The notes under the pieces are model-generated. The model was not told where the DNA came from and ran no database searches. It saw nothing but the letters and a program-made list of their open reading frames with translations. Both the position numbers and the translations under genes were made by a program. A DNA stretch of 32,000 bases from Nostoc sp. PCC 7120 = FACHB-418. GTDB lineage: Bacteria; Cyanobacteriota; Cyanobacteriia; Cyanobacteriales; Nostocaceae. Positions 1,463-32,000 of the stretch are shown one piece after another; the first letter of the stretch is position 1, and the number at the start of each line of letters is the position of its first letter. Where the stretch lies: assembly GCF_000009705.1 (NCBI RefSeq), contig NC_003272.1, positions 2,520,001 through 2,552,000 on the forward strand, given 5' to 3'.

Positions 1463-2056
1463 TTATGGATTGAGGATGAAAGCCAAATCTAAGATAAACC
1501 CAGGTAATATATCTTCGCCGGAAAGTTGGGGCGGTTGGTCAGCCGAAAAATTGATCGTTTCTACCTCAGCATCAGAGCGATAAATTTCTACTAAGGGTGT
1601 TTTTGGGTCAATGAGAAAACCCAAACGAGCGCCATTATCCCGATACTCCTGCATTTTGGCACGCAATTTCTTTAAAGAGTCAGTTTCCGATCGCAGTTCA
1701 ATCACAAAATCGGGACATAGTGGCGGAAAGCGTCGCCTTTGTTCACTTGTCAATGCTTCCCAGCGTTCTAGTTTCACCCAAGCCGCATCAGGGGAACGAA
1801 AAGCACCATTTGGTAAGCGAAATTCTGTTGATGAATCAAATACTTTACCGAGTTTGGCTTGTCGATTCCATAAGTTTAAATCTGTTGTTAAATTAGCGTT
1901 TCTAATGCCGCTTTCGCCGCCTGTTGGGGGCATAATGATTAATTCTCCTTCTGCCGTCAATTCAATTCGCCATTCGTCATTGGCTATGCACAGTTGATAA
2001 AACTGCTCATCCGTTAAACCTACGGCTGGTGGTACGTTGAGGGTGAGAGTTTCCAT
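1463..2056 (-). CDS. Uma2-family (DUF820) PD-(D/E)XK-like endonuclease
   Basis: 197-aa ORF with the typical Uma2 layout: EGELIIMPPTGGESG, RSPDAAWV, CPDFVIELRSETDS, MQEYRDNGARLGFLIDP. Confidence 0.85.
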   Translation of the reverse strand: METLTLNVPPAVGLTDEQFYQLCIANDEWRIELTAEGELIIMPPTGGESGIRNANLTTDLNLWNRQAKLGKVFDSSTEFRLPNGAFRSPDAAWVKLERWEALTSEQRRRFPPLCPDFVIELRSETDSLKKLRAKMQEYRDNGARLGFLIDPKTPLVEIYRSDAEVETINFSADQPPQLSGEDILPGFILDLAFILNP

Positions 2057-4078: not shown

Positions 4079-4702
4079 CTACCAGTTAGCTACAGCTTGA
4101 GCGATCGCATCTTTCGCACCTGCGAGAGATTTTTCACGAGCATCTTCGCCCATGTTCAAGGACTCAGCATGGATGAAGGTAACATCTGTTAGTCCCATGA
4201 ACCCTAAGATAGCACGGAGATAAGGTTCTTGATAGTCATAGGCTGCATAGGGTGTTCCTGGTGGATAACTACCACCACGGGATGTAATAATCAGTACTTT
4301 TTTGCTGCTATCAACTAAACCTTTATAGCCGTTTGCATCAACAGTAAAGGTTTTGCCTGCACGAACTATTTGGTCGATATACGCCTTGAAAGTCGAAGGT
4401 ATATTTAAGTTATACATCGGTACGCCAAAAACCAAGCGATCGGCGGCGAGAAATTCATCAATGAGGGTATCAGACAGCTCTATTGCTGTTTTTAGCTCAG
4501 GGGTGTGTGATTCTGGTGAAGAAAACGCCGCCGCAATCCAGGGTTCATCTACATGGGGAACAGGGTTGTGACCTAAATCCCGGTAAGTTACGGTATCACC
4601 AGGATGGGTATCTTTCCAAGATGTGATGAACTCGTAAGAGAGTTTACGGGATATAGAGCGATCGCCACGAGGGCTAGAATCAATATGGAGGATATTTGCC
4701 AT
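4079..4702 (-). CDS. azoR: FMN-dependent NADH-azoreductase
   Basis: MANILHIDSSPRGDRSISRKL is a flavodoxin-like N-terminus. FGVPMYNLNIPSTFKAYIDQIVRAGKTF matches the AzoR signature region. Length is 207 aa. Confidence 0.9.
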   Translation of the reverse strand: MANILHIDSSPRGDRSISRKLSYEFITSWKDTHPGDTVTYRDLGHNPVPHVDEPWIAAAFSSPESHTPELKTAIELSDTLIDEFLAADRLVFGVPMYNLNIPSTFKAYIDQIVRAGKTFTVDANGYKGLVDSSKKVLIITSRGGSYPPGTPYAAYDYQEPYLRAILGFMGLTDVTFIHAESLNMGEDAREKSLAGAKDAIAQAVANW

Positions 4703-4899: not shown

Positions 4900-4930
4900 A
4901 CTTAAAAGTAAGCTACTTACTTAAAAGTAA
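4900..4930. promoter_or_regulatory. Two 12-nt direct repeats ACTTAAAAGTAA (4900-4911, 4919-4930) around a GTAAG-CTA-CTTAC dyad; candidate operator
   Basis: Verified base by base. The site sits directly upstream of the HxlR-family gene ATG (4933) in the azoR-hxlR divergent region. Function is inferred only. Confidence 0.35.
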
Positions 4931-4932
4931 CT

Positions 4933-5265
4933 ATGAAAGCTGAAGCACAAAAAGATGAAAAGCTAACTTGTGAAGTGGAAACCACTTTGAAGGTAATTGG
5001 CGGACGCTGGAAGGTTTTAATTATCAGAGAATTGATGTTGGGTGTAAAACGATTTGGGGAATTGCAGCGAGCCTTACCCGGAATTACACAAAAGATGCTT
5101 ACCCAACAACTCCGGGAAATGGAAGACGACGGGATCATACATCGACAAGTTTATGCACAAATCCCCCCAAAGGTAGAATATTCTTTAACACCTGTGGGGG
5201 TAAGCTTACAGCCAATTCTCTATGCTATGCACGAATGGGGTGTAAAGCATTTAGCAAACAAATAA
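4933..5265 (+). CDS. HxlR-family winged-helix transcriptional regulator
   Basis: [52 protein letters not shown] is a textbook HxlR wHTH. The gene is divergent from azoR, which is a common pairing. Confidence 0.9.
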
Positions 5266-5289
5266 TTACCAAAGCCGAATTTGTTTCAA

Positions 5290-5670
5290 TTAGTTACTTT
5301 GCAAATATTCAATTGCTGCTTCTAATTTAGAGGGGTAGCTTTCAGCAAATCTTTCAAACCAAAGTCCTTCTGGAGAAAAGGGGTCTAGTTTTTCTAACCA
5401 ATTTTGTGCTTGCTGTTTTAAAGCCTCTCGCTGTTTAGCTTTGATTTGTTCTTGTCGAAGTCTTTCTTGTTCTAGTTCTTGCTGTTTTCTCAGTTCCTCA
5501 GCCGCATCTTCAGCAGCAATATCTGCTTGAACCTCGGCCAAAAGATTATCCATCATGGATGATGACTTAGGTTCAGAAGGACTGAAGGATTTGAATATAT
5601 TTGGTTGTTGTGTTTGTCCGTTCTCGTATTCAGCTTTGATTTGAGATAACAGCTTGTCTAGAGCATCCAT
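5290..5670 (-). CDS. Hypothetical E/Q/K-rich coiled-coil protein (last gene of the vWA operon)
   Basis: 126-aa ORF whose ATG lies 2 nt after the stop of the upstream vWA gene. The central segment EELRKQQELEQERLRQEQIKAKQREALKQQAQ is heptad-like. I recognise no family. Confidence 0.6.
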   Translation of the reverse strand: MDALDKLLSQIKAEYENGQTQQPNIFKSFSPSEPKSSSMMDNLLAEVQADIAAEDAAEELRKQQELEQERLRQEQIKAKQREALKQQAQNWLEKLDPFSPEGLWFERFAESYPSKLEAAIEYLQSN

Positions 5671-5672
5671 AG

Positions 5673-6278
5673 CTAATCTGTAATAGCATTAAGTAGCACT
5701 TCAGAAAGACTCAAATCTTCCATATCTTCCATTGTAACGGTGTCACAGATATCAAATTTAGCACCAGCACCTTGCAACTCATCATCTAAGACCTTGAGGA
5801 AGCGGGTTGCTTGAGCATCTGAGCCGACTTGAATGAAGGAAATGGCTAATTCTTCATCTTTATCCATGCGGCGGGAGGCTTCGATGATGACCCTCATCAC
5901 GGCTTTGCGATCGTCTGGTTCACCATCAGTAACTACTAAAATTGTCTCACCATTGGGCTTAGTTTTGCCAGCACCTTTGCGTTGAAAGTAATCATCAGTT
6001 GCGTGTTTTAGCACAGCAGCTAAATCAGTCGTTCCAGATGGGTCATTTTCTTGGAAAATTTGATTAACTTTGGCAGAAGTTACATTTTCATAGCGCTTAA
6101 ACCTGCCAGAAAAAACATATAATGTAATGCCATCTGGATCAAATTGTTCGCATTTACTAGCTAACGCCAAGGTAGATTCTTGTGCCGTTACCCATCTATT
6201 CCTACCACCTTTTTGATCAGGGGTAGCCATACTACCACTTTTATCGATAATGAGAGTGTAATCACGATTTTCTAGCAT
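5673..6278 (-). CDS. Cytoplasmic vWA (MIDAS) domain protein, paralog 3 of 3 in operon order
   Basis: DKSGSM (DxSxS), GTTDL and VTDGEPDD form the MIDAS set. It shares the tail GAKFDICDTVT...AITD with its neighbours. The track start at 6281 is a TTG. The ATG at 6276-6278 sits 8 nt after a GGGAGGA Shine-Dalgarno-like motif. Confidence 0.85.
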   Translation of the reverse strand: MLENRDYTLIIDKSGSMATPDQKGGRNRWVTAQESTLALASKCEQFDPDGITLYVFSGRFKRYENVTSAKVNQIFQENDPSGTTDLAAVLKHATDDYFQRKGAGKTKPNGETILVVTDGEPDDRKAVMRVIIEASRRMDKDEELAISFIQVGSDAQATRFLKVLDDELQGAGAKFDICDTVTMEDMEDLSLSEVLLNAITD

Positions 6279-6319
6279 CAATAAATCCTCCCGTTGCTAA
6301 CAAAAATAATTGAAATCAA

Positions 6320-6928
6320 CTAGTCAGTGATTGCCTTCATTAGCACATCTGATAAATTAGTTATTTCTAATTCATCCAAAGTGATGGTGTCACAAATATC
6401 AAACTTAGCACCAACACTTTGCAGGTGATCATCCAAAGCTTTAAGAAACTTAGTCGCGTGGGAATCCGAACCTACTTGAATAATGGAAATTCTCAATTCA
6501 TTAGCACTTTCCACAAGATGAGTCGCTTTAATTATGACTTCACATACAGCTTGACTATCAACTGGTGCGCCATCTGTAATCACTAAGATGACTTCTCCTG
6601 CGGGCTTTGTTTTACCCAGAGATTTGCGTTGAAAGTAACTATTGATGGCATCCTGAAGTACGCCAACTAGATTTGTGGTTTCGCTGGGGGAATTTTCTGC
6701 AAATAACTGTTTAACTTTGGCCGAATTTACATAATCGTAACGCTGAAAAGTTTTAGAAAATAAATAGACAGTAATACCATCAGAATCGAACTCCTCACAT
6801 TTACGAGCTAAAGCAAAAGTCGATTCCTGTATGGCTTGCCATTTGCTATTTTCACTATTGCCATCTGGCTTGGCCATGCTGGCACTGTGGTCGATAACTA
6901 GGGTGTAATCACGATTTTCTAACATCAT
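6320..6928 (-). CDS. Cytoplasmic vWA (MIDAS) domain protein, paralog 2 of 3
   Basis: DHSASM, ETTNL and ITDGAPVD motifs. The start was chosen at the MMLENRDY methionine (6926-6928) by homology with paralog 3. The track ORF extends to 6940. Confidence 0.8.
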   Translation of the reverse strand: MMLENRDYTLVIDHSASMAKPDGNSENSKWQAIQESTFALARKCEEFDSDGITVYLFSKTFQRYDYVNSAKVKQLFAENSPSETTNLVGVLQDAINSYFQRKSLGKTKPAGEVILVITDGAPVDSQAVCEVIIKATHLVESANELRISIIQVGSDSHATKFLKALDDHLQSVGAKFDICDTITLDELEITNLSDVLMKAITD

Positions 6929-6946
6929 ATTCAGTTGCATGAATAA

Positions 6947-7552
6947 CTAATCAGTAATTGCATTCATTAACACATCTGCAAGACTCATGTCTTCTAAATC
7001 TTCCAGGGTGATGGTATCGCAAATATCGAATTTAGCACCAACGCTTTGTAATTGATCATCTAAAGCTTTGAGAAACTTAGTAGCTTGAGCATCTGAACCA
7101 ACTTGAATCATGGAGATACCCAATTCCTCGTCGCGTTCCATCTGGCGGGTAGCATGAATGATGGTTTCAAATACGGCTTTGCGGTCGTCTGGTTCGCCAT
7201 CAGTAATTACTAAAATTGTTTCGCCATTGGGTTTAGTTTTACCCGCAGCTTTGCGTTGAAAGTAGTTATTCAAGGCATCTTGCAGTACGCCTGCTAAGTT
7301 CGTTGTTCCGGCTGGGTCATTTTCTAAAAATATCTGGGCGACCTTAGCTGAGGTAACATCGTCGTAACGTTTAAATTTGCCAGAAAATAGATAAACAGTA
7401 ATGCCATCTGGGTCAAACTGTTCGCACTTCCTGGCTAAAGCTAGGGTTGACTCTTGGGCTATCTCCCATCTGCTTCTACCACCAGCTTGATCGGGGGTAG
7501 ACATACTACCACTTTTGTCGATGATTAGTGTGTAGTCGCGATCGCTCATCAT
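6947..7552 (-). CDS. Cytoplasmic vWA (MIDAS) domain protein, paralog 1 of 3 (operon-first)
   Basis: DKSGSM, GTTNL and ITDGEPDD motifs. There is no signal peptide. The protein is collinear with the other two over its full length. Confidence 0.85.
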   Translation of the reverse strand: MMSDRDYTLIIDKSGSMSTPDQAGGRSRWEIAQESTLALARKCEQFDPDGITVYLFSGKFKRYDDVTSAKVAQIFLENDPAGTTNLAGVLQDALNNYFQRKAAGKTKPNGETILVITDGEPDDRKAVFETIIHATRQMERDEELGISMIQVGSDAQATKFLKALDDQLQSVGAKFDICDTITLEDLEDMSLADVLMNAITD

Positions 7553-7741
7553 AGTATTCCTTAAATTATTACCCTGCCGTTCTAGTCTAGTTCACACATC
7601 TCTGGTATAGGCAAAGACTTTAAGCTTTTGTATCAATCCTTGTGATCTTTTCATCTCTGGTGATGAAACTTGTGTTCAGAGAACTGCCTGAGTAGTCTGT
7701 CAATTAAAGTGAAGTAAGAAGTCTGAATATCAGGAGTAGTC

Positions 7742-12453: not shown

Positions 12454-13326
12454 TTAAAGGGCTTCTAACCAAGTTTGTAAATCAGCCAAACTTGTAAAAT
12501 CTAATAAAGCTTCGCTCAAATCTTCGAGAATCGGTAGAGGTAGAGTGGAAATGTGCGATCGCATTTCTTGAGAAATTTCTCCAAACCGCTTATTTAGCAA
12601 TCGAATAACCAGATTCACAGCCTCTTGCTGTCTTCCTTCTTCACGCCCTTCTTCCCGTCCTTCTTCCCGTCCTTCTTCTTTAATCTCTCTATAAACTCTC
12701 GTTTCTTTAAGTGTAATTCCCAACATTTCTTCTACCTCTGTTTTACTTAATTTTTCAAACTTGTACACCATTATCGTTGTGATCATCTCTATTATGGCGC
12801 GGTTTGATGGTTGAGATGCTTGCTGTTGACTCCTTGTTAATAAATATCTAGCTTCCAAGGGTGCTTGTTCTTCATCTATCGTAGTTAAAACCATCAATGC
12901 TAACCATAAGGGCAAAGAGCGAATATCACCCAATTCATCTAAATACACTCGATGAACTTGGTTGCTGTTCAGTAATGCACGATGGGGATAAACATCGCTT
13001 TGTTCGGTATAGCGCGATGGATAAATGATTACCGCTTGCCAATCGCTAAATCTAGCACGGTTGTGGTAGAAGTATAACGTGGATTCTGCAAATACTCTTT
13101 CATAAAGCTGTTCATCTTTTTGGAACTGCACCTCACAGAAATACACAACACCAGGATTTTCGCTGTCTGGTGGTAAAAATACCCCATCGATTTCAAATTT
13201 TGGTTCTTTAACAGCTACCGAATCAAATCGATAAGACTCCGCATTTATAGGAGGATTTGTCAATAGTTCAAATAGTAAACTGGGAGATTGTTGGAATAGT
13301 TTATAAAATATAGAGTCTCGGCGCAT
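12454..13326 (-). CDS. Rpn-family recombination-promoting nuclease / putative transposase (PD-(D/E)XK N-terminus, DUF4351-type C-terminus)
   Basis: The N-terminus DSIFYKLFQQSPSLLFELL and the C-terminus LVIRLLNKRFGEISQEMRSHISTLPLPILEDLSEALLDFTSLADLQTWL are typical of the cyanobacterial expansion of this family. Confidence 0.85.
   Translation of the reverse strand: MRRDSIFYKLFQQSPSLLFELLTNPPINAESYRFDSVAVKEPKFEIDGVFLPPDSENPGVVYFCEVQFQKDEQLYERVFAESTLYFYHNRARFSDWQAVIIYPSRYTEQSDVYPHRALLNSNQVHRVYLDELGDIRSLPLWLALMVLTTIDEEQAPLEARYLLTRSQQQASQPSNRAIIEMITTIMVYKFEKLSKTEVEEMLGITLKETRVYREIKEEGREEGREEGREEGRQQEAVNLVIRLLNKRFGEISQEMRSHISTLPLPILEDLSEALLDFTSLADLQTWLEAL
12635..12682. repeat. In-frame 12-nt tandem repeat (CCTTCTTCCCGT-type, about 4 copies) encoding (EGRE)n inside the Rpn-family gene
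   Basis: Units at 12635, 12647, 12659 and 12671. The protein reads EEGREEGREEGREEGR. Confidence 0.85.
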
Positions 13327-17170: not shown

Positions 17171-17791
17171 ATGGATTGTCACAAATGTAAATCTCAGGGT
17201 AAATCTTGTAAAAAGCGATCGCCTAAATCGTTATTTTTTCCCAAAAATCAGCAACCATTTACTCAGGACGTTTCCCACAATCCCCAAATTGCTTTGGTAG
17301 GAATGCCCAATGTTGGTAAGAGTGTGTTGTTCAATACACTGACGGGAATTTATGTCACAGTCTCTAATTACCCTGGCACAACTGTAGAAGTAAGTCGTGG
17401 GCTGGCGCAGATTGGGGAACAAAGCATCACAGTCATTGATACACCAGGAATGTATTCACTACTACCCATTAGTGAAGAAGAAAAAGTTGCCAGAGATTTA
17501 TTGCTTCTAGAACCTGTAGCGGCTGTGGTTCATGTGGTAGATGCGAAGAACTTGGGAAGAATGCTGCCTTTGACTTTTCAATTGATAGAAGCTGGTCTGC
17601 CGATTTTACTCGCCGTCAACATGATGGATGAAGCCCATCGTTGGGGGTTGGATTTACAACCAGACTTACTGGAGATGGAATTAGGGATTCCAGTAGTTTG
17701 TATGGCGGCTGCTTTGAACCAAGGTATAGATGAATTGCGACACAGGATAGCCTCACTCCTCCCAGTTCAGGTTGCCATGATACCAGCGTAA
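17171..17791 (+). CDS. feoB: FeoB N-terminal GTPase (G) domain as a stand-alone ORF, with a Cys/Lys-rich N-terminal extension
   Basis: G1 GMPNVGKS, G2 region YPGTTVE, G3 DTPG, G4 NMMD. The ORF ends shortly after the G5 region (MAAALNQGIDEL). Confidence 0.85.
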   Translation: MDCHKCKSQGKSCKKRSPKSLFFPKNQQPFTQDVSHNPQIALVGMPNVGKSVLFNTLTGIYVTVSNYPGTTVEVSRGLAQIGEQSITVIDTPGMYSLLPISEEEKVARDLLLLEPVAAVVHVVDAKNLGRMLPLTFQLIEAGLPILLAVNMMDEAHRWGLDLQPDLLEMELGIPVVCMAAALNQGIDELRHRIASLLPVQVAMIPA

Positions 17792-17827: not shown

Positions 17828-17918
17828 AGGGAAGCCAAACAGAATAAGGGTTTTAGATTGTGTATCTGTCGCATTTTTTTCAAATTGGCGTAAGTATTTG
17901 AGATCAGGAGAAAAGGGC

Positions 17919-19382
17919 ATGATTAGCCAAGTTATCTATCCAGAACCAATTGAAGCAGCGATCGCTCAATTAGAATCGTGGTGGCAGACATTGGGGAATC
18001 GCTATTTATTTCATAATTACTCACTATCACCTCGTAGCCTGGCTTTATTACTGTTACAGAAAGACCCAGGATTATGGCAAATATTACAACAAGACCAAGA
18101 ACAGTGTCGTCATCTGGAAGTTTTGATTACTGTTACCCAAAATCAACTTCATCAGCCTTTGGGACTAGCGATCGCCAATACTCGTCAAAGTCAGGCTCGG
18201 ACAATAGAAAGAGCAGTTTTGCATGAAGCCAGAGAAGCGCGATCGTCAATTACAGAAACAATCCACAAACTCACAGTCAATCCTATTACTGGCTTCCCTA
18301 TTCTTGTCGTTATTCTTTATTACGGAGTTTACAAATTTGTCGGTGAATTTGGTGCAGGGGAACTAGTGGATCGCATCGAAAGCTTTTTTGAATCACAAAT
18401 TAACCCATTAGTCAACCAAGTCACGGCACAAATCATTCCCTGGCGACCAATTCAAGACTTGATTGCTCATGACTATGGCATTATCACCTTGGGAATCCGT
18501 TATGCTACAGCGATCGTTTTACCTGTAGTTGCCACTTACTTCTTGATGTTCTCGTTACTAGAAGATAGCGGCTATCTCCCACGTTTATCTTTGATGCTGG
18601 ATCGCTTATTCAAATCCGTTGGTTTATCTGGTCGTGCGGTAATTCCGATGGTATTGGGCTTGGGGTGCGACACAATGGCAACAATAGTCACCCGCACCTT
18701 AGAAACCAGACGTGAACGATTAATTGCCACCTTTTTACTTTCCCTAGCCATACCTTGTGCAGCACAGTGGGGTGTAATTGTAGGACTACTGGCTCAAAAA
18801 CCAGCCGCCTTAATATTTTGGGGAGGCTTTATCACCGCCATCTTCCTAGTAGTTGGGTATCTCACCGCCAGATTGTTACCTGGGACTTCCGGCAGGTTTT
18901 ACATGGAAATTCCCCCTTTACGTTTGCCCAAATTACGGAATGTGTTCACCAAAACCTGGGTGCGGATGAAGTGGTATTTCTTAGAGGTATTACCCTTGTT
19001 TATCTGGGCATCTGTGTTGATTTGGGTGGGACGTTTAACCGGATTATTTGACGTAATTATTCGTGCAATTGAACCTCTCACCTTGGCTTTAGGAATGCCA
19101 AAACAAGCAGCGCCCATATTTCTCTATGGCTTCTTCCGTCGAGATTATGGTGCAGCCGGACTGTTTGATTTGCAGCAACAGGGAAGCTTGACAGGTAATC
19201 AATTAGTGATAGCTGCGATCGTTCTGACTTTATTTTTACCTTGTATTGCCCAATTGCAAATGCTGATTAAGGAACGGGGAACTAAAACTACTTTGGCAAT
19301 AGTACTGTTTATTTTTCCCTTCGCCTTCCTCATGGGATATGTCGTCAACCTCGGCTTAATATTATTCGGAGTGAACTTTTAA
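17919..19382 (+). CDS. feoB: FeoB helical (GDI-like) domain plus membrane permease domain as a separate ORF
   Basis: Begins MISQVIYPEPIEAAIAQLE, which is the segment that follows the G domain in intact FeoB. Polytopic gate/nucleoside-recognition-type region follows (GRAVIPMVLGLGCDTMA). AGGAG at 17906-17910 precedes the ATG at 17919. The track start at 17898 is a TTG. Confidence 0.85.
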   Translation: MISQVIYPEPIEAAIAQLESWWQTLGNRYLFHNYSLSPRSLALLLLQKDPGLWQILQQDQEQCRHLEVLITVTQNQLHQPLGLAIANTRQSQARTIERAVLHEAREARSSITETIHKLTVNPITGFPILVVILYYGVYKFVGEFGAGELVDRIESFFESQINPLVNQVTAQIIPWRPIQDLIAHDYGIITLGIRYATAIVLPVVATYFLMFSLLEDSGYLPRLSLMLDRLFKSVGLSGRAVIPMVLGLGCDTMATIVTRTLETRRERLIATFLLSLAIPCAAQWGVIVGLLAQKPAALIFWGGFITAIFLVVGYLTARLLPGTSGRFYMEIPPLRLPKLRNVFTKTWVRMKWYFLEVLPLFIWASVLIWVGRLTGLFDVIIRAIEPLTLALGMPKQAAPIFLYGFFRRDYGAAGLFDLQQQGSLTGNQLVIAAIVLTLFLPCIAQLQMLIKERGTKTTLAIVLFIFPFAFLMGYVVNLGLILFGVNF

Positions 19383-23335: not shown

Positions 23336-26300
23336 TTAACTAGGACAGAGTTTCTGTTCGTTAGGCGTAACATTGGGATTGGTGTTGAGATAATCCTGTA
23401 GCCAGTTGCAAGCAGACATGACTAGAGTATTCATCTGGGAAGTTTTGGCTTGCTGGCTATCAAAACGCCAAATTTTGGTGGTAGTGTCTAAACTGCCGGA
23501 GATGAGAGTTTTACCATCTGGGCTGAAAATTGCACTCATGACTCCGGCTTGATGCTGGGGTAGGGTGGTTAACAGGTGACCATCAATTTGCCAAATTTTT
23601 ACTGTTTTATCTTCGCTGGCTGATGCAATGTAACGACCATCAGGAGAGAAGCTACTACTATAAACTACATTACTATGGCCTGAGAAAGTATGCAGTAGAT
23701 GACCGTCATGACTCCTCCAGAGTTTGACGGTTTTGTCGGCGCTAGTTGAGGCAAGCATACTACCATCAGGATTGAAGTTGACGCTGTATACTAAGTCATT
23801 ATGGGCTGGCAAACTTTTAATTAAGTTGCCGCTAAAACTGTCCCAGAGTCGGATAGTTTTGTCAGCACTAGCAGAGGCGATAATTTTACCATCGGGGCTA
23901 AAACTGACCCAAAATACTTCGTCTGTATGACCCTTGAGGGTTTTTTTAAATTTACCATCGCTCACATTCCAAAGTTTAACTGTGTTGTCCCGACTGGCGG
24001 AAGCGAGGGTTTTACCATCAGGGCTAAAATTTACTTTGTTGACTTCGTTGTCATGTCCTATGAGTGTTTTTAAAGCTTTACCATCCCTAACACGCCAAAT
24101 TTTCACAGTTTTATCGGCGTTGGCGCTAGCTATTAAATCACCTTGGGGTGTAAAACTAATACCATAAATTGCTTTGTTCCCTGGTAGGGTTTTTAGTAAA
24201 CTACCATCTTGACTGTGCCAAAGTTGAATATTGCCATCTGCACCGGCTGTAGCAATGATACTACCGTCATGCAGGAAACTGACCGCATAAACACCGCTAT
24301 TGCCGGCGAGAACTTCTAAGGGAGATATCAAGGGACGCTGCCAAAGTCTGATGGTGTTGTCTAAACTAGCGGAAGCGATGATGTTACTATCAGGAAGAAA
24401 ATTCACAGCATAAACACCACCGCTATGGCCTGTAAAGGTTTCTAGTTCGATGCCGTGACGGTTCCACAGTTTGATAGTGTTATCTCTACTAGCAGAGGCG
24501 ATCGCTTTACCATCTGAGCTAAAATTAACATCCCAAACTGAATCATTGTGACCTTTTAGGGTTTTGACCAATTTACCATCAGCGATGCGCCAAAGTTTGA
24601 TGGTTTTGTCCGCACTAGCGGAAGCGAGAGTTTTACCATCAGGGCTAAAACTGAGGCTATTTACCCAATCTTGATGTCCATTGAGGGTTTTTAATAATTT
24701 CCCATCCTGGCGATGCCACAGTTTAACGGTTTTATCTTCGCTACCGGCAGCAATAGTTTGACCATCAGGACTGAAACGCACGGTGATAACTCCAGCACTA
24801 TGACCAGTGAGGGTCATTAAGAGTTGACCAGATGTAGTATCCCACAACTTGATGCTGTGATCACTACTGGCAGAGGCGAGATTTTTACCATCTGGACTAA
24901 AATAGACATTATTGACTGTTTGCTCATGACCTGTGATGGTTTTGAGTAGGGTTCCATCACTGGTTTGCCAAAGTTTAATGGTTTTGTCACTCCCCCCGGA
25001 AGCAATGGTTTGACCGTCGGGAGAGAAACTGACACTATAAACAGCATCTTCATGTCCGTTGAGAGTTCTGAATAACCGACCGTCTCGACTCCAAAGTTTA
25101 ATAGTTTTATCTAAGCTACCAGAGGCGATAGTTTGACCATCCCGACTGATACTAATACTAATCACGCCGTCCTTATGTCCTTCTAGCCTGTTACGTTCCT
25201 GCATCTCAAACAAGGCTTGTTGTAAGGTAGTGACAGTTGCTAATTTGAGATTATTGGGAACTGCTATCACATGATTAACCTGTTGTGCAGCTTTGAGACT
25301 GGCAATAAGTGCTGCTAATTGTTGATGAGATAACAAATTTGCCTGGGATGAAGAATTTAACGCCGCAATTTCCCTAAATTGGGCTTCCCTACCTTGCCAA
25401 TAAGCTAAACCCCCAAAACTCACAGATGCAATACCTAAAACACTCAAGGCGACTACAGCCCTTTGTGCTTGTTTGAGGCGATTTTTTGCTTGTAATTGTT
25501 GATGCTTGCGTTCTGCTAAACAAGCGCCTATAAATTCTTGCACATCCGCCCCTAGTTCATCAGTCCAGTAAATATAAATGTCTTCGGCTTCCGCTAACCT
25601 AGCACCTTGTAACAAAAAGTCTGCTTGTTTGCCGCTTTGTTGCCACAACTGACAAGCATGATTAATTTGCCTTTGTTTACGCAAGCGATCGCGGTTTTCT
25701 TCTAACCACCAGCGCAAAGTTGACCAATGACGTATTAAAATTTCGTGGGCGACCTCTACTGTCACGAAGGGAGTGGAGAGATTAGGGGGAGTGGGAGAGA
25801 AACTTTTACCTTGTGCTTCTATCTCTGCTTCTAGGTTAATTACTACTAATTTGGCGTTAGTCAAAACATTGAGAGTTTGTTCTACTAACCCAGCCGGATA
25901 TTTTTTAACTATTAAATCTGACTTATATATGCGTCTTCTGGTATCTTCTGTACCTTCCCCTAACTGAGTTAATGAAAGAAAAATCCACTTCGCACATTCT
26001 TGTAGTTGTGGTGGTAAACTTTCATAAACCCCTTGACACGATCGCTCTAATGCTCCTTTAATTCCCCCTAGTTGTTCTTGATAGCTTTGTAGAGTTAATT
26101 TACCAGCCGTTCGTTGTTGCCATAACTGTTCTAAAACAAATTCCAGTAAAGGTAAATCCCCCACGGATTGATTTAACTCCCGTAACAGCACTTCCACCAG
26201 TTCCGCTTCCACCTGCAACCCTACCTGCTGTGCTGGGTGGAGAATCACCCGCCGATAATCATCCAAACTCAGTTTTGGGGGAACTAACACACTAGCTACC

Positions 26301-28387
26301 TGTAACGCCTCAGCTAAAGCTGGTACTTCCAAACAAGGAGCGATAAAATCAGCCCTTAAAGTAATAATTAATTTAAAGCGATCGCCTGCATACTGTACAG
26401 CCCCCAATAATAATTCTAGAAATAACTCCCTATCTGGTGTTGGCGCAAGGGTAAATAATTCCTCAAACTGGTCTATTACCAACACCGTCACCCCCTGGGG
26501 AAGGCTACGCAGCCAGTAAACAAAACCCTCCACTCCTTGATGTAACATTCCCTCAATCAAAAGATGGGTTTCTCCCCATTCCCCCAACTTCCTGGCTAAA
26601 GCCTCCAAAGGATTGACACCAGGACGAATAGTTTTTATCCCCCACTGTTCACTATTGGGGATGTGTTTCCCTTGTCGCAGTTGGGGAATAAGTCCAGCTT
26701 GCACTACGGAAGATTTACCACTACCAGAAGCGCCGATAACAGCGAGAAATGAATTATCCCGCAGATGATGAATTAACTGCTGGGTGACGGTTTCTCTCCC
26801 GTAAAAATAGGCTGCGTCTGCTTCCGCAAAAGCATTTAAACCCATGTAAGGACACACCCCTAAATCCAAACCGCTTGTCCGTTGGCTTTTGTGTGTGTTG
26901 TTAGTCAAAATTTCGATAATTCCCTGGGTTCCTGATAGCCAGACGTAGAGAGGGGTTTTACTATCCGCTAAAGATAATTGTAATTGAGCGATCGCTCCAG
27001 CCGCAGACAAACCATCTCCTTGAGCAGATGCAGTCAAGGTATCAAGGAATTTCTGGGCAAAATTTTCTGGTGCTTCTGGAGGTGAGGCGCAAGCAATTAA
27101 ACATTGTCCGTGATGAGATTCAATTTGTAAGTCTTCTATCCAATCCCCTAACGAAGCAGTCCCTAGCGGACAATCCAAGATAATTACCTGTTGGCTAGTG
27201 CATTGGCGTAACTGTTGTTTTAACCAGGAACGTTTGATGCAGATATCCTCTCCCAGTCGTAGCCATTCCCCAGCTTCGCTTTCCTCAATGCGTCCCCGCA
27301 GATATAACAAAGTTAATTCTGCTTGGGGTTGTTGCCAATGACGAGCGATCGCTGCTTTAATATCCTCAGATGATGTTTTAGTAGCTGGCAAATACTCAAC
27401 CGCAAAATCTCCCGTACTACCAAGAAGTTTACTAATATCTAAAGTAATTTTACTATTTGATAACCCCTCCACTACTATCCCCAAGCCACGATACACCCCT
27501 GGGGCGTTTTTCTCTAATCTTTTCCCTAAAATTAATTCCCCCACTCCCTCCACAATTCTTTTAGGAGTTTGCAAGGGATATTCATTATAAAGTTGCGTGT
27601 CACCCTTCCCCCGTTTCTGCTGATTAATTAGCCGTAATTGTTGATTAGTTTTATCGATATATTGCAGGGTTTGGTGATATACATAACGATATAAGCCATC
27701 CAAATAAATCAAGCCTTGACTATCTACCGCCTCGCCTTGCAAACCCCGTATCAAATAATATGTAAATACCCCATGTCCCAATTCGGGAAATTCCCAGGAT
27801 TGTTGGTTATTGTCACAAGAAAGTAAAGCATAAAAACCTTTACTCTTAGCCGCGCTTTGTTGTAGTAGCTCAACTAATTGCAGTGTTACTCCCCTAAGAG
27901 ACATTCCCCCACTATGACAAGCATCTAACCACACTAGCTGATTCTGTACCCCACTCTTACCCAAAATTTGCAATATTTCTTGTAAAGCTAAACCTGTATT
28001 TTGCAAATTTGATTTTTGCGTATCTACCAAACATAAAAATACTTCTTGTGTCGTGGGATCTACTACCCCGTGACCAGAAAAATAAAATAAAATCGTATCA
28101 ATGGGGGATACATGAGACGTGATATCTCGTAGGCTATGACGGACGTTAGTTAAAGATGGTGGTTGTGGTGCAAAGTCGTGATACACGTTGACAATCTTTT
28201 GGGTAAATTGAGTAGCTGCTTCAGTTAACGCCTCAGATAAACCCTGACAATCTATGGCTGAGTAATTCAGGTTGGGTAGGTATTCGTCCTGATATTGATT
28301 TACTCCCACCATCACTAACCACAACTTGGGGACGTTGGTTTGTTTGGTATGAGTTGTACGGCTGGTGGAAAGACCAATTGGTGGCAT
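23336..28387 (-). CDS. Caspase-like (peptidase C14, orthocaspase) protease fused to a STAND P-loop NTPase and 14 WD40 repeats
   Basis: His-Cys dyad: FYFSGHG (His codon 28070-28072) and WLDACHSGG (Cys codon 27917-27919). Lead-in motif [21 protein letters not shown]. Walker [10 protein letters not shown] (Lys codon 26714-26716). Walker [12 protein letters not shown] counted 14 units of the x-GH-x...SFSPDG...AS(A/G)S.DKT(I/V)KLW type. Confidence 0.9.
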
Positions 28388-28902: not shown

Positions 28903-28970
28903 CTCTTTATATAGTCGTTGATTTAATGTAATTGCTTGGTATTAACAACTGCATTAAAGACTTTTTGATC

Positions 28971-29705
28971 ATGTTTACAACTAATAAATTGACCAGAACT
29001 TTTGCTTGTGCATCGGTAACACTTGGTGTTGCGATTGGTGCAAGTATGTCTGCTTCTCCCGTTCAGGCTGGAACTCTTAACTGGAATGACGGAACTAGCA
29101 ACTTTTTTGAACAGGTAAGTCCTGTTCTTGGGGATACTTTTTCCGTCACTTTCTCTCCTGCATCACTTGGAGGATTTGCGTCGATTTTTCAAGCCAATGG
29201 TGAGTTTGCATCAGCTTTCTCCTCAATTCCGCCAAACCCTCCTGTGTTTCGCTCAATCCTGCCACCAGACTCTGCGGTGGGAAACTTTTTGTATGCGGGT
29301 ACTAGTGGCGCTAAGTTCATATACGAACTCACTAATGATTTAGTGTTTCAGTTCGATGCGGACAATAATGGTGCTTTTGATCCGCTTCAAGATGTGAGCG
29401 TGAAATATGCAAAAGACTCTAAATTTCTCGGTACTTTTGCTGGTGGAGGTGTGGCATTTGAGTTAGATTGGAAGGCTCCGGCTTCAGTGATTAGCATTCA
29501 GGGAGTCAATTACAATCCAAGTCGACTTCAATTAGGCTTTCAGGATCTTCCAGGAGGACAAGGAGGGGGATATAGCGGTGTAGCCCAAGTCTCTACTCCC
29601 GAATCTGGTTCTATTCTGGGGTTTATCGCCCTTGCTGGTTTAGGACTTGTATCTAAGGTCAGAAAAGAGAAAACACAGTCACTGGCGTGTGCAAGACACC
29701 AGTAA
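28971..29705 (+). CDS. Secreted protein with a PEP-CTERM-like sorting tail (P-E-S variant)
   Basis: Signal peptide MFTTNKLTRTFACASVTLGVAIGASMSASPVQA. The C-terminus is TPESGSILGFIALAGLGLVSKVRKEK: a PEx motif, a hydrophobic helix and a basic cluster. I prefer the ATG at 28971 over the TTG at 28932. Confidence 0.7.
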   Translation: MFTTNKLTRTFACASVTLGVAIGASMSASPVQAGTLNWNDGTSNFFEQVSPVLGDTFSVTFSPASLGGFASIFQANGEFASAFSSIPPNPPVFRSILPPDSAVGNFLYAGTSGAKFIYELTNDLVFQFDADNNGAFDPLQDVSVKYAKDSKFLGTFAGGGVAFELDWKAPASVISIQGVNYNPSRLQLGFQDLPGGQGGGYSGVAQVSTPESGSILGFIALAGLGLVSKVRKEKTQSLACARHQ

Positions 29706-29940: not shown

Positions 29941-29967
29941 GTTGACAGTTGACTGTTAACTGTCAAC
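29941..29967. repeat. GTTGACN heptamers x4 forming a 10-bp inverted repeat (GTTGACAGTT / AACTGTCAAC) that overlaps the stop codon of the 332-aa gene
   Basis: Read directly. It belongs to the same heptamer family as 28441-28489. Confidence 0.75.
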
Positions 29968-30961
29968 TTCTCATTAAAATAAGTTTGTGTGGCAAATCAT
30001 TCCAAGACAGTGAATCTTGGACAATTTCCTGACGAAAATCTAACCAACCTTGCTCATTGCATAAAGCCAACAAATCATGAATTATTGTGTACCAAAGCAG
30101 AGGTGTATCAGCACGTCCCTGAGCAAGAAACTGAGCAGCTTGTGTGAGAAAAGTAGTGATATCTTGCTCCACAAACGCGTGTTTGATGGAAAACCAAGCA
30201 TAGGAACGTGAGTAGCGAGATTTGTCAGAGTGAACTGGTAACTGTAAATAATCTGCCGCAATTGTTAACAAATTAGCTGCTTGATTGCGGTCTTTATCTG
30301 CCAAAATTAGGGCAACTTCACTGGTAATTTGGGCAAACATAGCAGAGACAAACTCAGGCGGCTGGCGTGCTATGCGTTCAAAACCCCAAGGATGGGGAGT
30401 AGGTAAAGTCTGCAATTGTCCATCAAGATAGGCAAGAAGTTGAGCAGCAAGTGCGATCGCTCCTGTAAAATTTAATTGTCGTGCTTCTGTCCGCACCAAA
30501 TTATGTAACAGTTGGATACGCTGCATCAGGAGAATATCATAACCATATTCTTCCTCTAAAACCGCACTTAATCTTAAAGCCTCTTCAGTGCGACTGTAAA
30601 CTTGGTCAAAATCCTGATGACAATAATCGAGATAGGCTGCTGATTGCTCTAAAAATGACTGATGTAATAGCTTGGACTCCCGCGACAGTGTAGCCATTTG
30701 CAAAGGCTTACGCGCTTCCTCAAATAACTGCGCGGCTGTTGTTAGTTGGCGGTGGCGAGCCGCTACCATCCCTTGACTACGAGCATTACTATAGCGACGC
30801 AGTAATAATTGTTCTTGTAATGGTAAACGTTTCGCCATCAAAGCTTCTAGTTTTTCGCTAAATAAATCACCACTACCTGTGGGTAAATCCATAGTTGCAG
30901 TACACCCCTGGCGATAACTTTCTGTGATTTGTGTTAGGAGTTGACTGGAAGTATCAAGCAT
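29963..30961 (-). CDS. Hypothetical all-helical 332-aa protein, translationally coupled to the radical SAM/SPASM gene
   Basis: Its ATG (30959-30961) overlaps the upstream TGA (30954-30956), reading ATGCTTGA. It is Leu/Gln/Ala-rich and I found no recognisable catalytic motif. Confidence 0.7.
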   Translation of the reverse strand: MLDTSSQLLTQITESYRQGCTATMDLPTGSGDLFSEKLEALMAKRLPLQEQLLLRRYSNARSQGMVAARHRQLTTAAQLFEEARKPLQMATLSRESKLLHQSFLEQSAAYLDYCHQDFDQVYSRTEEALRLSAVLEEEYGYDILLMQRIQLLHNLVRTEARQLNFTGAIALAAQLLAYLDGQLQTLPTPHPWGFERIARQPPEFVSAMFAQITSEVALILADKDRNQAANLLTIAADYLQLPVHSDKSRYSRSYAWFSIKHAFVEQDITTFLTQAAQFLAQGRADTPLLWYTIIHDLLALCNEQGWLDFRQEIVQDSLSWNDLPHKLILMRS

Positions 30962-32000
30962 AAACTAAAGCCTCCTGGTTAGCTTCTGCTTCTTCAATCC
31001 GAGATAACGCATAGGTAAGTAATAAACGTTGCTCAATGTTATGTTTAGCACTGGGGCATGGTTCAATACCTTCTAACCAACTCTTTGGACAAGAACCACC
31101 GCAAACAGGTAACATAGGGCAAGTAGAACAGGGGTATGAACCTTGACGCACTTTATCATTAAAACTAGCTAAACGTTCCCTGTTACCAGGCATCTGTTTA
31201 CCTGATAAATGATCAATGGCATATTCATTAGGTGTGCCGTATGTAGGGACATAAGATACTTCTGTACAATTAAAAATATTGCCATAGGCATCAACTAATT
31301 CCGAATGGGGCATTACAGCCATACAAACTAGAGGTTTGCGCTCTGGTAATAACCCAACATTGAAACCTAACTCAACCATTTCCCCAAACCAAGTTATTTC
31401 CCAATTAGCAAATTCTTCTTTAGATAGGGAACGAGTATGAGCATCATTGCCCCAAGAATGAATTGGTGCTACATAAAAACTAATCTTGTCTTGTATCTCT
31501 ACCTCAGCTAACTTTTGTAGTAACAAAGAGACAGATTCATAATTTTGATAGTCAACATTACAACGAATATTAATTTGCACATCCAAATCTTGTCGATGAG
31601 CTAGGGCTGTAACATTAGCAAAAATTTTATCAAAAGTAGGTAAGCCATTTTTCTGCATCCGTCGAGCATCATGATATTCACCTACACCATCAAGAGTAAT
31701 TTCAATAGAATTTACGCCTAATTCTTGAACAATTTCTGTTGCTACTTGATGTGTTAGAGCTAAACCGTTGGTGACAATTTTTGCATGATAACTACAACCA
31801 AAACTGGCTGCAAGAGACTGTAGTTTTGGCGTGAGAGTTCTCATCACTGGCAACCCTACCAAAGGTTCTGCACCAAACCAACTAATTGAGAGACTACGAA
31901 AGTTCTTGCTTGCGAGTTTTTTAGCAGCCCGTTCTATAAATTTTTGCTGCTCATCTTCAGTCATCATTTTGCTAGTATGTTCTTGACCGCAGTAATGACA
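30954..32000 (-). CDS. Radical SAM/SPASM-domain enzyme (anSME / peptide-maturase-like), 5-prime end outside the window
   Basis: The frame stays open to base 32000. The last in-window codons read C-H-Y-C-G-Q-E-H-T-S-K-M-M, which is the end of a CxxxCxxC motif. The C-terminal SPASM-type cluster is YPCSTCPMLPVCGGSCPKSW, followed by EPCPS. Confidence 0.85.
   Translation of the reverse strand, partial: CHYCGQEHTSKMMTEDEQQKFIERAAKKLASKNFRSLSISWFGAEPLVGLPVMRTLTPKLQSLAASFGCSYHAKIVTNGLALTHQVATEIVQELGVNSIEITLDGVGEYHDARRMQKNGLPTFDKIFANVTALAHRQDLDVQINIRCNVDYQNYESVSLLLQKLAEVEIQDKISFYVAPIHSWGNDAHTRSLSKEEFANWEITWFGEMVELGFNVGLLPERKPLVCMAVMPHSELVDAYGNIFNCTEVSYVPTYGTPNEYAIDHLSGKQMPGNRERLASFNDKVRQGSYPCSTCPMLPVCGGSCPKSWLEGIEPCPSAKHNIEQRLLLTYALSRIEEAEANQEALVYA

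Follow-up and report, generated by a model that had tools for sequence, protein, structure and literature searches.

Organization of the locus

The subject of this work is a group of four genes in the genome of the cyanobacterium Nostoc sp. PCC 7120 = FACHB-418, located in a stretch of 32,000 nucleotides (contig NC_003272.1, positions 2,520,001 to 2,552,000), which is referred to below as the window and in whose coordinates all positions are given. According to the open reading frame (ORF) listing, four minus-strand ORFs are tightly packed across 7552..5290. Three of them, which we call vwaA, vwaB and vwaC, encode paralogous proteins of about 200 amino acids (aa) with a von Willebrand factor A (vWA) domain and a predicted metal ion-dependent adhesion site (MIDAS), and the fourth, which we call cc, encodes a coiled-coil protein (Table 1). 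An earlier reading of the letters alone (hereafter the original prediction) had described three consecutive full-length paralogs and a 126-aa ORF starting 2 nt after the last vWA stop, and both the ORFs and the spacing between the vwaC stop and the cc start were found exactly so. What is new here is that these TerY/TerF-like cytoplasmic vWA proteins have a different, cyanobacteria-specific putative partner, the Slr1339-family product of cc.

The locus tags all2110, all2109, all2108 and all2107 were assigned to the four genes by counting the gene order from All2105, which is a flavin mononucleotide (FMN)-dependent azoreductase in a published list and fits the corresponding ORF of the window. 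Between vwaA and the maximal ORF of vwaB there are 6 nt, a gap that would widen to ~18-21 nt with a start of the type found in the orthologs; the real start of vwaB is probably located at ~6925-6928, since MLENRDY is the N-terminus of the orthologous proteins. The maximal vwaC ORF is separated from vwaB by 38 nt, and its real start is probably the ATG at 6278, which has GGAGG ahead of it; a Shine-Dalgarno-like AAGGA is likewise present ahead of vwaA. The minus strand showed no terminator-like sites between the first and the last gene of the operon. The four genes have a GC content of 0.38-0.44, compared to the range of 0.36-0.46 in the window.

Alignment of the regions 5' of the vwaA orthologs from 20 Nostocales loci revealed an ATTGATACAAAAGCTTAAAG box of ~20 nt, placed ~40 nt 5' of a -10-like element TAGACTAG, which is followed by a leader with CAGGGTAA (~7570-7650, minus strand). 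All three elements are common to many Nostocales genera and they may contain the binding site of a regulator. According to a preprint, all2110 has a putative LexA box close to its -10 region.

Table 1. Coordinates of the four genes, their predicted promoter and other features of the window
Feature	Position	Strand	Description
vwaA (inferred all2110)	6947..7552	-	201 aa, cytoplasmic vWA protein, MIDAS intact; paralog with the highest conservation
vwaB (inferred all2109)	6320..6940	-	206 aa, accessory middle vWA paralog, MIDAS intact
vwaC (inferred all2108)	5673..6281	-	202 aa from TTG; second core vWA paralog, MIDAS intact
cc (inferred all2107)	5290..5670	-	126 aa, Slr1339-family protein
Promoter and leader of the operon	7553..7660	-	upstream box ATTGATACAAAAGCTTAAAG, -10-like TAGACTAG, CAGGGTAA leader, AAGGA ribosome-binding site; predicted from the alignment of upstream regions
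HxlR-family transcription factor (inferred alr2106)	4933..5265	+	Pfam HxlR, E 4.5e-38; convergent with cc
FMN-dependent azoreductase (All2105)	4079-4702
Uma2-family putative endonuclease	1463-2056	-	flanks the wider region; mobile-element candidate
DUF2887/DUF4351 protein	12454-13326	-	flanks the wider region; mobile-element candidate
FeoB, G-domain ORF	17171-17791	+	206 aa
FeoB, remainder	17898-19382	+	494 aa; cytosolic-helical, gate and C-terminal part
nSTAND1-WD40 protein	23336-28387	-	1683 aa; nSTAND1 NTPase and many WD40 repeats
ORF	28932-29705	+	no Pfam match at E<=1e-5
ORF	29963-30961	-	no Pfam match at E<=1e-5
ORF	30954-31967	-	no Pfam match at E<=1e-5

Family assignment and metal site of the vWA proteins

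All three vWA proteins score above the Pfam thresholds of the VWA_2 (30.8-41 bits, cut-off 27) and VWA (30.2-30.7 bits, cut-off 23.8) families. Against vWA-TerF-like (PF10138, cut-off 29.4 bits), scores of 30.8, 33.6 and 29.3 bits were obtained for vwaA, vwaC and vwaB, respectively, the last being 0.1 bit short, while all 14 diverse cyanobacterial members of the family matched nearly the full model at E<=0.01 (best 5e-11). This supports the TerF-, TerY- or copine-type character that the original prediction had deduced from the order of the motifs. The motifs it had quoted (DxSxS, the threonine of TT(N/D)L, TDG(E/A)P and the GAKFDICDT tail) are all present, and the MIDAS residues D12, S14, S16, T84 and D118 (vwaA numbering) are invariant in 168 of 168 sequences (78 A, 9 B and 81 C) and in the 14 diverse members. 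Neither a membrane segment nor a signal peptide was found in the vWA proteins (the maximum 19-residue Kyte-Doolittle mean is 1.19), as had also been anticipated. Judged by sequence, these proteins constitute a TerY/TerF-like branch of stand-alone cytoplasmic vWA proteins with a complete predicted MIDAS.

The resemblance to TerY and vWA-TerF-like proteins comprises the stand-alone domain of ~200 aa, the complete MIDAS and the lack of a signal peptide; however, the proteins of the window score barely around the Pfam threshold, and TerY is defined by genomic association with TerD/TerZ/TerC or with a pair of a PP2C phosphatase and a Ser/Thr kinase. None of these genes was found in the 32-kb window, which also contains no MoxR-type AAA+ or Bat genes, so that the absence of the usual vWA partners claimed in the original prediction stands; moreover, no TerC was found across the cyanobacterial loci examined. 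In contrast to the Ter systems, the cyanobacterial proteins are partnered by a coiled-coil protein of the Slr1339 family and occur in tandem arrays of 1 to 4. The A-domain of copines is similar in being a cytoplasmic vWA domain with a comparable order of motifs, and weak Copine matches were obtained for 12 of the 14 diverse members, but the scores of the window proteins (19.2-21 bits) are below the cut-off of 27, and these bacterial proteins have no C2 domain. With BatA/BatB, MoxR-associated vWA proteins and integrin I-domains they would share the generic vWA/MIDAS fold, at the level of remote similarity, but they are not extracellular and possess neither a membrane anchor nor a MoxR AAA+ partner. 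The closest solved structures identified by sequence and profile searches are also remote, namely BatB (3ibs, E 0.009) and integrin alpha-M (E ~0.6). An AlphaFold model of the vWA protein, built from an alignment of near-identical orthologs, exhibits alternating strands and helices at low confidence (predicted local distance difference test, pLDDT, 60), and a Foldseek search with this model returned no meaningful match.

The putative Slr1339-family partner

The original prediction had described cc as an E/Q/K-rich coiled-coil ORF. Its product is more than that, being a high-scoring, full-length member (155.9 bits, cut-off 45, E 1.2e-45) of the curated NCBIfam family NF047397, named 'salt stress protein, Slr1339 family', with residues 4-126 aligned to positions 2-143 of the 143 in the model; its homologs are annotated with Pfam PF26643, and an exhaustive search identified relatives in 187 clusters at 50% identity (E<=1e-10). 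The family is characterized by an N-terminal D.LL..vKaEY motif in one to five copies, Pro-rich linkers, a Q/E/R-rich helix and a conserved C-terminus (WL..LDP.S.EG.WFE.FA..Y.S.LEAAI.YL). The protein of the window has two copies of the N-terminal motif, a long Q/E/K-rich helix and a C-terminal helical module. In its AlphaFold model (mean pLDDT 78, residues 80-125 >90), a short helix at the N-terminus and a disordered linker precede a long helix spanning residues 34-93 and two short C-terminal helices; no counterpart was found in the PDB by sequence or by fold. The profile search suggested along with the original prediction has yielded named families (vWA-TerF-like and Slr1339), and for the latter the databases gave a name but nothing on function. 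The gene slr1339 was found neither in the supplements examined for a Synechocystis salt multi-omics paper nor in the body of an earlier proteomics paper, and our literature search found no description of the Slr1339-vWA pairing or of the position of Slr1339 downstream of ndhN.

The idea that there is one N-terminal motif per vWA subunit was considered and rejected, because the number of repeats does not increase with copy number among the loci that carry vWA genes, and because the motif also occurs in loci without adjacent vWA genes. A weak overall correlation between repeats and copy number turned out to be an artefact of an over-strict pattern that missed one redundant clade without vWA genes.

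Conservation of the module in Nostocales

The Nostocales sample comprised the best 80 of 375 matching species genomes in a scan of a genome collection, all of them Nostocales by virtue of the similarity ranking. In all 80 loci, vWA genes are located directly upstream of cc on the same strand. Two vWA genes (A and C) are present in 69 of the 80, three in 8 and one in 3. What is conserved in Nostocales is thus the pair of vWA genes A and C followed by cc, the triplet being confined to a minority of loci. The claim of a conserved four-gene set holds for the linkage of the vWA genes with cc, but not for the triplet itself, the number of copies in other cyanobacteria ranging from 0 to 4 (see below). 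The middle gene, vwaB, is kept in 8 of the 80 loci and in the window, i.e. in the scattered lineages Anabaena/Trichormus, some Nostoc and Calothrix/Tolypothrix, and has been lost from most others.

Two of the three single-copy loci are cut by a contig end. The third, in Nodularia sp. UHCC 0506, is the sole amply flanked Nostocales locus with a single vWA gene, which is of the C type and located upstream of cc, suggesting that the A paralog has been lost in this lineage. A module of the Nostoc type, with 65% identity to cc of the window, was also encountered on a contig of a metagenome-assembled genome labelled 'Acetobacteraceae bacterium'; it is probably a cyanobacterial binning contaminant.

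Divergence of the paralogs

The protein identity is 76% between A and C, 69% between A and B, and 60% between B and C. The identity at third codon positions is 45-50% and the Nei-Gojobori dS (synonymous substitutions per site) is saturated at 1.7-2.0, which indicates that the paralogs are old. The original prediction had estimated that the outer two proteins are about three-quarters identical, with divergent third positions, and it had argued for an ancient origin; both points agree with these values. The tandem arrangement and the high similarity of the proteins could, in principle, also be produced by redundant recent duplication, with one or two copies decaying, or by an error of assembly. 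However, apart from the saturated dS, each paralog forms a separate clade of orthologs in many genomes, none of the reading frames is disrupted, the MIDAS residues do not vary and no dN/dS (ratio of nonsynonymous to synonymous rates) exceeds 0.13; an assembly artefact is excluded because dozens of genomes, sequenced independently, contain orthologs belonging to these paralog groups. We regard this explanation as refuted, with virtually no probability left to it.

Across Nostocales, the orthologs of vwaA have a mean identity of 95% and a dN/dS of 0.033, and those of vwaC 93% and 0.051, which places the vWA proteins, with ~95% identity across genera, among the most conserved uncharacterised proteins of heterocyst-forming cyanobacteria. 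The orthologs of vwaB, with a mean identity of 78% and a dN/dS of 0.128, have evolved about four-fold faster. The dN/dS analysis, which had been proposed as a check on decay, revealed none in A, B or C, all copies of B having an intact frame and MIDAS, and each of the genes is under strong purifying selection.

In a bootstrapped neighbor-joining tree, B is monophyletic with 100% support, C with 99%, and A together with the single copy of Chroococcidiopsis with 91%; the split uniting A, Chroococcidiopsis and B has 92%. Eighteen positions are fixed differently in A and C, and B carries the state of A at 12 of these 18 diagnostic sites. The shared states and the grouping with A argue that vwaB is an old, A-derived paralog, and by inspection the tree of the B copies roughly mirrors that of A. 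The original prediction had treated the three proteins as equal, conserved paralogs, and in this respect it has to be revised, as vwaB is an accessory, faster-evolving derivative of A and does not rank as a third subunit equal to the others; A and C, the core paralogs, are now set apart from it. Five of the 18 fixed differences lie at residues 85-96, right after the MIDAS threonine, and alter the charge there, which suggests that the roles of A and C are probably non-redundant. In the same tree, copies 2-4 of Laspinema form a clade of their own (80% bootstrap; 100% for copies 3-4), which shows that the amplification in this genus is independent of that in Nostocales.

Gene neighbourhoods outside Nostocales

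Relatives outside Nostocales were named with a profile of distant Slr1339 members, followed by a look-up of gene neighbourhoods in eight genomes, in five of which a vWA gene adjoins cc. The order is ndhN, one vWA, cc in Coleofasciculus and in Xenococcaceae; one vWA, cc in Chroococcidiopsis; ndhN, cc, one vWA, ldpA in Symploca; and ndhN, four vWA, cc, ldpA in Laspinema. In Spirulina, Chroococcopsis and one ENA genome, cc has no adjacent vWA. The ribosomal S10 operon (rplC) is located upstream, in divergent orientation, in Laspinema, Xenococcaceae and Symploca, and an R3H/AAA ATPase follows ldpA in Laspinema and Symploca. In addition, a consensus-led scan of metagenomes provided 37 loci with >=1.5 kb on either side of cc. 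They carry no vWA gene in 17 cases, one in 6, two in 8, three in 5 and four in 1. Eight arrangements occur, namely C, VC, VVC, VCV, VCVV, VVVC, VCVVV and VVCV, where V stands for vWA and C for cc; a vWA gene adjoins cc in 20 of the 37, and the adjacency is kept in both gene orders. Also in 20 of the 37, ndhN is found upstream on the same strand (e.g. L089, L093, L098, L110 and L111), and ldpA was detected downstream in 6, as in Laspinema and Symploca. What recurs across cyanobacteria is a gene of the Slr1339 family, usually downstream of ndhN outside Nostocales, accompanied by vWA genes that vary in number (0 to 4, on either side), and tandem amplification of the vWA genes has been repeated, independent and lineage-specific.

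These neighbourhoods could mean that the two families are neighbours only by history, i.e. that vWA proteins and Slr1339 have separate functions and owe their adjacency to an old ndhN-ldpA synteny near the ribosomal S10 operon. Such an explanation accounts for the many loci in which Slr1339 directly follows ndhN without a vWA gene, for the lack of an adjacent vWA in 3 named genomes out of 8 and in 17 metagenome loci out of 37, for the frequent same-strand ndhN upstream, for viral vWA relatives that never occur with Slr1339 (described below), and for motif repeats that do not track copy number. On the other hand, neither ndhN nor ldpA was found within 10 kb in the Nostocales loci, nor near the module of the window, yet the vWA-cc adjacency persists in 80 of 80, which argues that in Nostocales the cassette has moved as a unit. 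The vwaC stop and the cc start are 2 nt apart, and the adjacency has survived reordering (VC, CV, VCV). Co-inheritance of the vWA and Slr1339 genes, even after the relocation in Nostocales, is shown by these loci, and we consider separate functions fairly unlikely.

The same neighbourhoods are compatible with a role in the photosynthetic membrane, in which Slr1339 would act on NDH-1 or on a redox-sensing pathway and the vWA proteins would be its subunits for adaptation or assembly. The vWA proteins ChlD, CbbO and NorD serve as assembly or activation adaptors, and ndhN is followed by slr1339 on one strand, with or without vWA genes in between, in Coleofasciculus, Laspinema, Xenococcaceae, Symploca and Spirulina; the occurrence of ndhN in 20 of 37 metagenome loci, and of ldpA downstream in 6 of them, in Laspinema and in Symploca, points in the same direction. 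However, no AAA+ partner is present, the Nostocales loci have no ndhN or ldpA within 10 kb, and a literature search for the gene names and the ndhN/ldpA neighbourhood found no paper linking these genes. Besides, ribosomal genes also border this neighbourhood, so that it may be plain synteny. We give a thylakoid or NDH-1 factor only a small chance.

Relatives on viral contigs

Single-copy, full-length relatives of the vWA proteins were found on 77 viral contigs of IMG/VR (L169-L245), with 33-57% identity and a GC content of 28-67%. Many of these loci resemble early regions of temperate phages, with an S24-type repressor, RecT or an SNF2 helicase. A TerC-like membrane protein is encoded in 8 of the 77 and directly adjoins the vWA gene in 5; on one contig (L169, vWA at 4926-5591 and TerC at 5612-6292) it was confirmed against Pfam TerC. 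This sharing of a locus with TerC by viral members of the clade is a further likeness to Ter systems and strengthens the TerY-like classification, and the phage-borne pairing of a TerY-like vWA protein with TerC may merit a separate study. The Slr1339 family is absent from the viral contigs, none of the 77 relatives being accompanied by a gene of this family, which implies that a vWA protein is able to act without Slr1339. Taken together with the Slr1339 loci devoid of vWA genes, this indicates that either component can exist without the other nearby.

The vWA family might accordingly be primarily phage-borne, and the locus a domesticated phage gene or a module of phage defence or counter-defence. 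Besides the 77 relatives and the phage-like early regions, this is suggested by the match of the window vWA proteins to phrog_5359 (E 1e-17), a phage family without assigned function. Nevertheless, PADLOC models of defence systems gave only marginal matches to the window proteins (E 0.0008-0.04), all to unrelated models, and the partner family is missing from viral contigs. Inheritance in Nostocales looks vertical, with 95% identity, a dN/dS of 0.03 and a B tree that mirrors the A tree, the GC content of the genes is ordinary (0.38-0.44), and no mobile-element genes were found within ~2.5 kb of the module, the nearest candidates being 3-5 kb away. We hold a phage-derived function to be very unlikely.

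A possible metal-dependent assembly

We propose that the locus encodes a two-component module, in which one or more vWA proteins and a dedicated Slr1339 partner form a metal-dependent assembly, and we give this proposal an even chance of being correct. The MIDAS of each vWA subunit would hold a divalent cation (Mg2+, Mn2+ or Ca2+), and an acidic side chain of a protein ligand would complete the coordination of the metal, as in other vWA domains. The likeliest candidate for both ligand and scaffold would be the Slr1339 partner: a Glu in its predicted exposed S-x-E-G-x-W-F-E loop is invariant, its N-terminal helices are acidic, and its long helix is fit for oligomerisation. The coiled coil would then gather several vWA subunits into a metal-dependent hetero-oligomer; a hetero-oligomer of the vWA paralogs, as the original prediction had imagined, is plausible, and the charge differences between A and C beside the metal site would suggest non-redundant subunits or ligands. 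The output would probably be a function in ionic, metal or redox stress, and this is the weakest step of the proposal.

Several observations speak against this proposal. The Slr1339 gene occurs without an adjacent vWA gene in 17 of 37 metagenome loci and in 3 of 8 named genomes, and conversely all 77 viral vWA relatives lack it; loci with more vWA copies do not have more repeats of the N-terminal motif in the partner; the ion-transport genes that adjoin the module in the window are not kept beside it in other loci; and the vWA model is poor (pLDDT 60), so that the divergent residues are placed near the metal by sequence order only.

Weak hints of a link between the vWA/coiled-coil assembly and stress are provided by the family name, the response of All2110 to Cd and LexA, TerC on the phage-like contigs and the HxlR neighbour, a regulator of the redox/electrophile type. 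The abundance of All2110 has been reported to shift with Cd and with LexA overexpression (bioRxiv 10.1101/2022.09.23.509143), and the protein has been seen on a cytosolic 2D gel in a published Anabaena proteome list, while All2108 has been reported in the Anabaena exoproteome (PMC4390845). A connection with salt through two genes that adjoin the module in the window, the TrkA-like gene and the Na+/H+ antiporter, was considered and rejected: the former is found beside the module in 1 of the 80 Nostocales loci and the latter in 2, one of them weak (28% identity), so both are incidental.

The vague label 'vWA domain-containing protein' is here replaced by a defined, testable system of vWA copies and Slr1339, with a convergent HxlR gene in Nostocales, and the module may exemplify the evolution of a homomer into a heteromer via tandem duplication. 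One may go further and imagine a metal-switched scaffold common to cyanobacteria, in which Slr1339 oligomers display vWA proteins that have repeatedly diversified from a homomer to an obligate hetero-oligomer (A and C, with B, in Nostocales; the four copies in Laspinema), coupling the cytoplasmic divalent-cation or redox status to NDH-1 or the thylakoid. If true, it would explain the ancestral position downstream of ndhN, the presence of ldpA in some loci, the HxlR neighbour and the single phage copies near TerC, but as a whole this extension is clearly unlikely.

Flanking genes and the wider window

The features that go beyond the original prediction include, in addition to the ancestral ndhN neighbourhood and the phage-borne relatives near TerC, the convergent HxlR gene. 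It is found beside the module in 69 of the 80 Nostocales loci, always on the opposite strand and at a median distance of ~98 nt from the end of cc, while the genes beyond it vary. In the window it is divergent from the azoreductase gene, a pair that presumably resembles known electrophile-response gene pairs.

The mobile-element candidates nearest to the module, the Uma2-family and DUF2887/DUF4351 genes, belong to repeated nuclease-like gene families that are common in cyanobacterial genomes. Near the end of the window there are three ORFs of 257-337 aa, listed in Table 1 as having no Pfam match. FeoB appears to be split into two ORFs with ~106 nt between them, one encoding the N-terminal G-domain and the other the remainder of the protein; the gene may be truly split, it may carry a frameshift or be a pseudogene, or it may have been interrupted by an insertion. 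Finally, the window encodes a large protein that combines an nSTAND1 NTPase with WD40 repeats, an architecture typical of conflict and signalling systems in multicellular cyanobacteria.

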